Shown here: in pieces, positions 54,814 through 55,008 of the stretch
Numbering within the stretch: position 1 is the stretch's first letter
Layout of the letters: each line of letters starts with the position of its first letter
Assembly: GCA_049517415.1 (NCBI GenBank)
Contig: JBEKSC010000004.1
Location: 64,001 to 128,000, forward strand
Reading direction: 5' to 3'
Origin: Candidatus Bathyarchaeia archaeon
Lineage (GTDB): Archaea > Thermoproteota > Bathyarchaeia > 40CM-2-53-6
DNA: 64,000 bases
Position numbers and translations under genes: made by a program
The notes under the pieces: model-generated
The model's input: only the letters and a program-made list of their open reading frames with translations
Database searches by the model: none
Told to the model about the DNA's origin: nothing

Positions 54814-55008
54814 GCGGGGGTAGGCCACGCGTAGAGCGTGCGTTAGTCCCCCACTGCCAAACTCTCAAATGTTGAGAGGGCGAAGCCAGGTCAAAGGCGC
54901 GAGACGTATCCAAACCATACGTACGTGAAGCTCAGGAACATCAAACCGGGATGTTAAGAGACCTCGTCCCGTAGGGGTTCAGGGGTTCGAATCCCCTCCC
55001 CCGCACCA
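54814..55008 (+). tRNA. tRNA-Leu(CAG) with four introns (8/9, 14/15, 30/31, 37/38)
   Basis: Exons 54814-21, 54855-60, 54885-903, 54930-36 and 54961-55008 join to an 88-nt cloverleaf with GCGGGGG/CCCCCGC acceptor, CGAGG/CCUCG anticodon stem, long variable arm, TTCGAAT and ACCA. Confidence 0.9.

Follow-up and report, generated by a model that had tools for sequence, protein, structure and literature searches.

The window referred to throughout is the whole 64,000-nt stretch of DNA analysed here; positions are those of the window unless a contig handle (C with a number) precedes them, and orthologous loci carry L numbers. On its plus strand, downstream of a TATA-like block and two short leader blocks, lie five exons separated by four introns (sites in manual Sprinzl numbering). 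An earlier note, made from the letters of the sequence, had drawn a tRNA-Leu(CAG) gene with this arrangement, and all nine of its segment boundaries are present in the sequence as given there. The elements are listed below, with a hyphen inside a bulge marking the border between exon and intron.

54750..54764, plus strand: TATA-like block GCATTAGCTTTATGT, a putative promoter by conservation and spacing
54789..54796, plus strand: leader block GTGCGGGG, the exact complement of tRNA positions 67-72 plus A73 and C74
54805..54809, plus strand: second leader block TTGGC, conserved just 5' of the gene (CTGGC in most orthologs)
54814..54821, plus strand: exon 1, 8 nt, tRNA positions 1-8
54822..54854, plus strand: intron 1, 33 nt, site 8/9; central helix G3-G6/CCCC, bulges GU-A and AC-U, inner helix of 3 bp plus hairpin, outer helix of 2 bp
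54855..54860, plus strand: exon 2, 6 nt, positions 9-14
54861..54884, plus strand: intron 2, 24 nt, site 14/15; central helix UGCC/GGCG, bulges AA-A and AA-G, 7-bp inner hairpin, without outer helix (HBh' type)
54885..54903, plus strand: exon 3, 19 nt, positions 15-30
54904..54929, plus strand: intron 3, 26 nt, site 30/31; central helix CGCG/CGUG, bulges AG-A and AA-G, 5-bp inner hairpin offset by 2 unpaired bases
54930..54936, plus strand: exon 4, 7 nt, positions 31-37, containing the anticodon CAG
54937..54960, plus strand: intron 4, 24 nt, canonical site 37/38; central helix CUCA/UAAG with a C.A mismatch, bulges GG-A and AG-A, 5-bp inner hairpin
54961..55008, plus strand: exon 5, 48 nt, positions 38-76, from the anticodon-stem 3' strand to the encoded CCA, including the long variable arm, the T arm, the acceptor 3' strand and A73

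Spliced product and intron motifs

Joining the five exons by coordinates yields an 88-nt RNA, called as tRNA-Leu(cag) by ARAGORN from end to end ([1,88]), so that the canonical 88-nt tRNA expected by the earlier note is indeed what intron removal leaves. The acceptor stem of this product, of 7 bp, is perfect, its anticodon stem has 5 bp and its T arm is standard; A73 is in place, and the CCA is encoded. In the ARAGORN drawing it also bears the marks of a class II tRNA: a 14-nt variable region with a stem (the length being the value scored by the cloverleaf solver described below), A73, the CAG anticodon and G37.

The four introns share one plan. In each, four exon bases pair with four bases near the intron 3' end to form the central helix; both bulges straddle a border, with two bases before it and one after it, so that the 5' bulge takes two bases from the exon and one from the intron, and the 3' bulge two from the intron and one from the following exon; a hairpin lies inside the intron. 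Cutting within both 3-nt bulges, after the second nucleotide, restores the canonical cloverleaf. For introns 1 to 4 the central helices pair at 4/4, 4/4, 4/4 and 3/4 positions, the inner helices measure 3, 7, 5 and 5 bp, and the outer helices formed in the primary transcript measure 2, 0, 2 and 1 bp. In intron 4 a C.A mismatch leaves 3/4 pairs and places the motif in the relaxed class. The motifs had been described accurately in the earlier note, which rightly called those at 30/31 and 37/38 imperfect, intron 3 having two extra unpaired bases and intron 4 its C.A mismatch. In this locus's own sequence the 5' bulge of intron 3 lies opposite these two unpaired bases and is an internal loop, not a clean bulge. 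As judged from the sequence, removal of intron 3 turns the outer helix of intron 4 into the 5-bp anticodon stem.

Standard annotation misses the gene. In the unspliced window ARAGORN found no tRNA and Rfam at the gathering threshold found no family, and the target locus is absent from the 33 matches that RF00005 gives across the whole genome at E<=10. When ARAGORN was run with introns allowed, its calls for the locus were wrong: Val(aac), with an intron of 1197 nt, or Gly(acc). Our solver takes a stretch with a T arm at one end and a matching acceptor 5' strand at the other, enumerates its bulge-helix-bulge (BHB) candidates, removes every compatible subset of introns and scores the product as a cloverleaf, with no use of the coordinates of the earlier note. 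ARAGORN as a yes/no filter within the solver proved too permissive and the target was missed; the cloverleaf score was used instead. The top solution, at C4:118814-119005, contains the same four introns and scores 81.5, with the runner-up at 77.5; the reversed-genome decoy reached a maximum of 67.0 (184 of 1080 seeds processed). The genome census with relaxed seeds covered 247 of 1492 real seeds and these 184 decoy seeds. A focused census took the 36 seeds near Rfam or ARAGORN matches, about 20 of which were credibly solved, and the maximum number of introns per gene given here is that among these genes. Note that the solver fails on 16-nt introns and solved three of the orthologous loci (L013, L016 and L017) wrongly.

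Orthologs, intron loss and the second-copy question

When the locus was compared by BLAST with 59 genomes of the family, long matches came from its own genome and, within the genus, from 16 of 22 further genomes; in the remaining six all matches were short and fell on other Leu genes. Introns were counted by a regex parse in 16 loci and by the solver in L009, the parse being what resolved L013, L016 and L017, with their introns of 16-24 nt. Four introns are kept in 13 of the 17 same-genus loci. In L004 and L005 intron 2 is cleanly missing and exon 2 runs straight on into exon 3; in L010 and L011 the same is true of intron 1, with exon 1 running into exon 2, so that the 6-nt exon 2 is seen contiguous with each of its neighbours. 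Intron 3 of L004 is identical, and its intron 4 near-identical, to the corresponding introns of the four-intron loci L001/L002; L010 stands in the same relation to the four-intron locus L007, and L005 and L011 are one to a few bases away from those intron 3 and 4 sequences. Because introns 3 and 4 match those of four-intron loci, we read the single-intron absences, by this similarity, as probable precise losses. Outside the genus, the 30/31 intron is the sole Leu(CAG) intron in sister genus g2 (L021-L025), three loci of other genera of the family have an uninterrupted Leu(CAG), and L027 has one intron after position 7.

Among the orthologs, intron length ranges from 16 to 33 nt, and the pairing of the central helices is retained. 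That of intron 1 is 4/4 in all 14 parsed loci having this intron; that of intron 2 is 4/4 in 13 of 14 loci, the exception being L017 (3/4); and that of intron 3 is 4/4 in 16/16. Intron 4 is 3/4 in 16/16 loci, with the C.A mismatch invariant in the 14 aligned loci (14/14). A real gene with another number of introns or with other borders, such as a retained intron or a single intervening sequence covering the 8/9-14/15 region, is highly improbable in our judgement. Spliced alignment without motif rules does merge introns 1 and 2 in several loci, and for the short-intron loci L013, L016 and L017 the solver gives different, low-scoring solutions. However, the L010/L011 and L004/L005 variants join their exons at exactly the predicted junctions, a tRNA made without exon 2 misses positions 9-14 and the D-stem 5' strand, and moving the intron 3 border by a single base alters the mature sequence. 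The four separate introns listed above remain the reading that we follow.

Covariation was assessed in an alignment of the 14 four-intron loci (A1), to which the four motifs were supplied as structure. Paired bases occupy 90.2% of 460 cells, as against 36.3-59.9% when the partners are slid by 1-3 columns, and eight pairs, in 18 cells, have compensatory changes on both sides; none of 500 shuffles (0/500) attains the observed paired fraction or covariation score. The central helices are paired at 100%, 98.2%, 100% and 75% for introns 1 to 4, and three pairs with compensatory changes lie in the inner helix of intron 2. All five exons are invariant or nearly so over the 14 loci, with diverging intron loops; since the exons hardly vary, the cloverleaf itself cannot covary.

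An exact-pattern search for the 3' exon, with one genome per species, returned 52 stretches. Among these, the stretches with three or four introns are labelled Candidatus Bathyarchaeia/Bathyarchaeota archaeon with two exceptions, both on short contigs: L053 (Acidiferrales bacterium) and L038 (Promethearchaeati archaeon), the latter from a genome outside the family list. The matches with the labels Nitrososphaeria, Hadarchaeota, Brockarchaeota and others have no introns. As the gene occurs in assemblies of several isolate-name series, it is no assembly artefact.

The earlier note had asked whether another Leu(CAG) gene exists. The genome has one Leu gene for each of the anticodons UAA, CAA, UAG, GAG and CAG; no second full copy of Leu(CAG) is present in the 59-contig assembly, and an unsplit Leu(CAG) anticodon stem-loop is absent genome-wide. 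With 59 contigs and an estimated contamination of 6.86%, the assembly could hold a second Leu(CAG) gene in a gap. Besides the gene itself, the CAG-specific 3' stem occurs in the genome only in a 61-nt fragment at C2:122837-122896 (-), which comprises the last 12-13 nt of intron 4 and exon 5. It was rejected as a second gene: exons 1, 3 and 4 are missing, with no motif of theirs within about 500 nt upstream, and a recombinase gene is adjacent. After the fragment come a 113-aa ORF and a gene for a tyrosine recombinase (PF00589, E 3.6e-20); in L005, a 1.3-kb stretch with 86% identity to this C2 recombinase region comes after the full Leu(CAG) gene. We read the fragment as an attachment-site copy from an integrative element targeting this tRNA gene. 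A match at C6:16239 to the initial 11-mer of exon 5 has no tRNA context and was dismissed as chance.

Could the locus be a decaying or silent pseudogene, filled with insertions and left unspliced, with CUG read by tRNA-Leu(UAG)? The failure of ARAGORN and of the Rfam tRNA model to recognise it, the imperfect motifs of introns 3 and 4 and the partial 3'-end copy on C2 would all fit such an origin. We nevertheless regard it as very unlikely, since the exons stay near-invariant in 14 loci in which the intron loops diverge and the helices are compensated, the cloverleaf after splicing is flawless, this is the only Leu(CAG) gene found, and the TATA-like box and leader blocks upstream are conserved. 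By wobble, tRNA-Leu(UAG) could in principle read CUG, and the Leu(CAG) gene may therefore not be strictly essential. The join by coordinates, ortholog parsing and covariation agree on a tRNA-Leu(CAG) with four BHB introns and micro-exons of 6-8 nt, which was the core of the earlier proposal, and with high confidence we take 54814-55008 (+) to be the single functional gene for tRNA-Leu(CAG), whose precursor is probably spliced by EndA and RtcB.

Precursor folding and the upstream leader

The earlier note had further supposed that splicing is ordered, which our folding results do not show. The four core motifs (central plus inner helix) have no nucleotide in common and can coexist: in the leaderless precursor, the fold with all four motifs has -60.0 kcal/mol against a minimum of -73.9. 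Overlap with a neighbour's central helix is confined to the optional outer helices, with G10-C11 used both in the outer helix of intron 1 and in the central helix of intron 2, and C32-U33 both in the outer helix of intron 3 and in the central helix of intron 4. By ViennaRNA, the intron 2 motif is part of the minimum-free-energy fold (leaderless, P 0.95-1.0) and that of intron 3 lies 1.8 kcal/mol above the minimum of the leaderless precursor; both are predicted to form freely. The motifs of introns 1 and 4 lie 6.6 and 6.9 kcal/mol above the minimum, with P 0.16 and about 0, respectively (37 C, leaderless), and stay 4-10 kcal/mol above it whichever other introns are removed first. As prior intron removal does not alter this picture, the sequence dictates no order, and the folding energies give no consistent one. 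One-at-a-time cutting and joining of each intron, which would avoid a double cut around exon 2 before ligation, nevertheless seems likely, because the exon 2 hexamer would otherwise be held by nothing more than its three to four D-stem pairs.

Upstream of the gene, a TTAGCTTTATGT-type block is found in 18 rows (g1 and L038) of the 19-locus alignment A2, L027 being without it. About 27 nt separate the TATA-like block from the leader block, which fits the archaeal TATA-to-start distance. The GCGGG core of the leader block is invariant in all 19 aligned loci (19/19) with variable flanks, and the Leu(CAG) leader block is conserved in 18/18 loci while its flanks drift; it carries substitutions in the one lineage missing intron 1. 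The second leader block, which reads CTGAC in the two loci without intron 1, is by eye complementary to GCCAA of exon 2 or to GCCAG at the start of exon 3, both candidate partners. Adding the 26-nt leader lowers the predicted minimum energy from -73.9 to -94.7 kcal/mol, and a helix between leader and 3' end is predicted to displace the acceptor stem in 18/18 loci (P 0.86-1.0).

The leader block is also a copy of the tRNA's acceptor 5' strand. Using an exact match of at least 6 nt to this strand within 45 nt upstream as the criterion, we found such a copy in 2 of the 20 credibly solved tRNA genes, namely Leu(CAG) (GUGCGGGG) and the three-intron Asn(GUU) on C58 (C+GCCGCCG), each matching its own acceptor. 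The first intron is at 8/9 in both. Within this genome the copy thus accompanies 2/3 of the solved genes with an 8/9 intron and 0/17 of the others; Leu(GAG), which is also interrupted at 8/9, has none in the 45 nt upstream. The Asn copy GCCGCCG is preceded by a C opposite G73 in 11/11 anchored orthologs (of 19 loci).

That the leader promotes formation of the intron 1 motif is a hypothesis for which the fold predictions give no evidence: addition of the leader increases the motif probability in just 4-5 of 16 loci (its own, L002, L003, L009 and, slightly, L006) and not in the 11 other loci with intron 1, and shuffled leaders do equally well. For Asn(GUU), the predicted probability of the 8/9 motif stays at 0 with the leader, and we could find no cleavage motif built by the leader block.

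The leader block may be a cis-acting tether for 8/9 introns, a suggestion that we make tentatively and consider possible though rather doubtful. The match to each tRNA's own acceptor, the conservation amid drifting flanks, the company of 8/9 introns and the substitutions in the lineage missing intron 1 speak for it; the absence of a copy at Leu(GAG) and the fold predictions just given speak against it. Formation of the 8/9 motif would pull acceptor nucleotides 3-6 off the acceptor stem and onto the intron. The 8-nt exon 1 would then be barely attached to the tRNA body and could be lost with the excised intron. Pairing of the leader copy with the acceptor 3' strand and the discriminator (8 bp) would retain this 5' fragment until RtcB has joined U8 to position 9, after which RNase P would cut. 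We found no description of such a leader element in the accessible portion of PMC4090602 or in a literature search on the subject. The split and permuted tRNAs of Nanoarchaeum equitans and C. merolae, as treated in that portion, are alike in that sequence outside the tRNA pairs within the precursor and holds the pieces in a processing-competent state; they differ in that their pairing creates the BHB cut site, whereas here the leader pairs with the acceptor 3' strand.

Splicing enzymes, other tRNA genes and comparison with known systems

The genome encodes two EndA paralogs, both of which have the N- and the C-terminal EndA domain, PF01974 and PF02778 each matching the same two loci (on C10 and C2). 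The 190-aa product of C10:74890-75462 matches the catalytic alpha subunit of Aeropyrum pernix (3p1z_B, E 7.5e-39), with the catalytic Tyr/His/Lys aligned and with two lysines opposite K44 and R46 of the A. pernix specificity loop. The 187-aa product of C2:41773-42336 is divergent and, in the alignment, has no catalytic His in the aligned region; as expected, it fits a structural beta subunit. The RtcB ligase is encoded at C5:94022-95332 (E 3.4e-172). In the sections available of PMC3241643, a specificity loop grafted into a narrow-specificity EndA confers cleavage of non-canonical introns. The broad-specificity EndA that the earlier note had deduced from the intron sites thus holds by homology: an enzyme of the (alpha-beta)2 type, with two paralogs and specificity-loop lysines, appears to be encoded.

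We would picture the pathway as follows, its transcription start, cutting, joining and any order of events all being inferred from sequence. Transcription from the TATA-like box near 54757 would give a precursor of about 220 nt; a heterotetramer-type EndA, with catalytic alpha and structural beta subunits, would cut after the second bulge nucleotide on both sides of each intron; RtcB would ligate the exons, including the 6-, 7- and 8-nt pieces; and RNase P would take off the leader. Removal of the introns by something other than EndA and RtcB, such as self-splicing or a different nuclease, is extremely unlikely. We found no point in support of it, all four introns have the geometry recognised by EndA, and EndA and RtcB genes are present. 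Group I and II ribozymes are far larger than 16-33 nt, so that the orthologous introns are too short to be either.

Interruption is widespread among this genome's tRNA genes. Seventeen Rfam tRNA matches pass the cut-off; two of them have lengths of 73-75 nt, the other 15 extending over 90-187 nt. A second four-intron gene, Pro(GGG), lies at C6:94952-95128 and has four 4/4 central helices. Its orthologs measure 173-181 nt in 16 anchored loci (of 18), and the solver yields the same four sites in 9/18 loci, with 6/18 wrongly solved and two more without a 3' anchor. Leu(UAG) has three introns by eye, of which the one in the T arm is about 62 nt long. Also by eye, its 14/15 intron resembles the Leu(CAG) 14/15 intron of L011, and a likeness is seen as well between the Leu(GAG) intron at 8/9 and the short form found in L012-L017. 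These likenesses suggest common ancestry or gene conversion among the Leu genes. A blastn-short search of the genome with the four Leu(CAG) introns returned only self-matches below E 0.1; with no copies elsewhere, there is no evidence of transposition.

How unusual is a tRNA gene with four introns? The accessible text of PMC8450103 and PMC4033280 states a maximum of three introns per archaeal tRNA gene; among these sources, a review from 2014 puts it as 'a maximum of three' in Thermoproteales. The earlier note had called four introns, including one at 8/9, exceptional. The number does lie above the stated maximum, but the available text of an Asgard preprint of October 2026 (10.64898/2026.10.13.758758) reports 'up to five in a single gene', and at least one other gene of this genome has four introns and two others are interrupted at 8/9, so that 'exceptional' is overstated. 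Four introns surpass the peer-reviewed limit, not the newest reports.

As far as the available sections of the cited papers go, one of the nearest counterparts is found in Thermoproteales (Pyrobaculum, Thermofilum and Caldivirga; PMC4033280, PMC8450103), whose multi-intron tRNA genes go together with an (alpha-beta)2 EndA bearing the specificity loop, the type that also appears to be encoded here, and whose introns can lie so close that the motifs share neighbouring exon bases. They differ in that their maximum is three introns per gene as against four, in that their hosts are hyperthermophilic crenarchaea as against soil/peat Bathyarchaeia, and in having intron families (PMC4090602, accessible portion) as against no similar intron copies in this genome. 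In Asgard archaea, 92-95% of tRNA genes are interrupted according to the accessible text of PMC11291895; as here, most genes are interrupted, many have several non-canonical introns missed by standard annotators, and there are two EndA paralogs per genome (Supplementary Data 8 of the same paper). The lineage is another one, the present genome being that of an uncultured archaeon of Thermoproteota, class Bathyarchaeia, which has 0 mentions in the text of preprint 10.64898/2026.10.13.758758. Among eukaryotes, the nuclear tRNAs of Cyanidioschyzon merolae have up to three BHB introns, D-arm sites included (PMC3728597, accessible text). There RT-PCR intermediates reveal a preferred order that tracks motif stability, whereas here the energies give no consistent order; and the alga has three introns at most, the archaeon four. 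A literature search, with most subscription journals outside its reach, found no paper on tRNA introns in Bathyarchaeia, for which heavy tRNA interruption seems undescribed in print.

Genes of this type are invisible to ARAGORN and to the Rfam tRNA model, and the tRNA counts used for judging the quality of such assemblies are consequently too low. The relatives that miss single introns offer clean material for the study of intron loss, and the self-complementary leader, if functional, would count as a new accessory to pre-tRNA splicing. With this locus, an archaeal tRNA gene with four introns and an internal exon of 6 nt is well supported, where reviews and the standard annotator's paper say three. 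Finally, beside Thermoproteales and some Asgard archaea, this soil/peat genus of Bathyarchaeia represents another lineage with very heavily interrupted tRNA genes.

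Leader and downstream neighbour of tRNA-Leu(CAG)

Two features flank the tRNA-Leu(CAG) gene in the window:
54789-54813, conserved leader of tRNA-Leu(CAG), also found upstream of the same-genus loci L001-L017, of L027 (another genus of the family) and of L038 (a genome outside the family list)
55121-55354 (+), 77-aa ORF encoding an antitoxin domain of the MazE/AbrB type (PF04014, E 9.2e-12)

One block of the leader, GTGCGGGG, complements, base for base, the acceptor 3' strand, the discriminator and C74 of the tRNA, and in 18 of 18 tRNA-Leu(CAG) loci a helix between leader and 3' end is predicted to replace the acceptor stem. 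The second block of the leader reads CTGGC or TTGGC. The gene itself holds the near-repeats GCCAA (54856-54860, in exon 2) and GCCAG (54885-54889, at the start of exon 3), either of which could be the pairing partner of this second block. On the 3' side, the MazE/AbrB-type ORF is a close neighbour of the tRNA gene.

The assemblies that carry the archaeal tRNA-Leu contigs L038, L053, L034 and L074 are labelled Promethearchaeati archaeon, Acidiferrales bacterium, Dormiibacterota bacterium and Anaerolineales bacterium, respectively; these contigs are probably mis-binned or mislabelled.

A partial tRNA-Leu(CAG) copy beside a recombinase gene

Elsewhere in the same genome (G000), part of the gene recurs on contig C2:
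G000:C2:122837-122896 = L087:6838-6897 (-), 61-nt partial tRNA-Leu(CAG) copy
L087:5568-6338 (-), tyrosine recombinase gene adjoining this copy

The copy consists of exon 5 preceded by the final 12-13 nt of intron 4. At L005, a locus from another species, a homologous recombinase region lies directly 3' of the full tRNA-Leu(CAG) gene. The copy on C2 probably represents the site at which an integrative element attaches; this putative site takes in intron sequence, namely the end of intron 4.

Interrupted tRNA genes across the genome

Further interrupted tRNA genes, and a partial copy of one of them, are found on other contigs of G000:
C6:94952-95128 (+), tRNA-Pro(GGG) gene (L089/L092)
C58:2482-2608 (-), tRNA-Asn(GUU) gene (L112/L114; orthologs L115-L126)
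C5, about 2230-2510 (+), tRNA-Leu(UAG) gene (L090)
C16, about 41990-42100 (-), partial 3' copy of tRNA-Leu(UAG), T-arm insert included

The tRNA-Pro(GGG) gene is a second four-intron tRNA gene of the genome, with 4/4 pairing in each of its four central helices, and 17 other genomes of the genus have orthologs of equal length. Parsed by eye, tRNA-Asn(GUU) contains three introns, at 8/9, 30/31 and about 38/39. Seven nucleotides of this gene's acceptor 5' strand are repeated 20 nt upstream of it, and this 7-nt copy is kept in all 11 of the 11 anchored orthologs (19 loci in all). Introns at 14/15 and about 29/30 interrupt tRNA-Leu(UAG), and the 3' strand of its T-arm additionally holds an insert about 62 nt long.

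Over the whole genome, Rfam tRNA matches number only 33 at E<=10, and 15 of the 17 above the cut-off span 90-187 nt. The tRNA genes of this archaeon are mostly interrupted, and standard models miss many of them.
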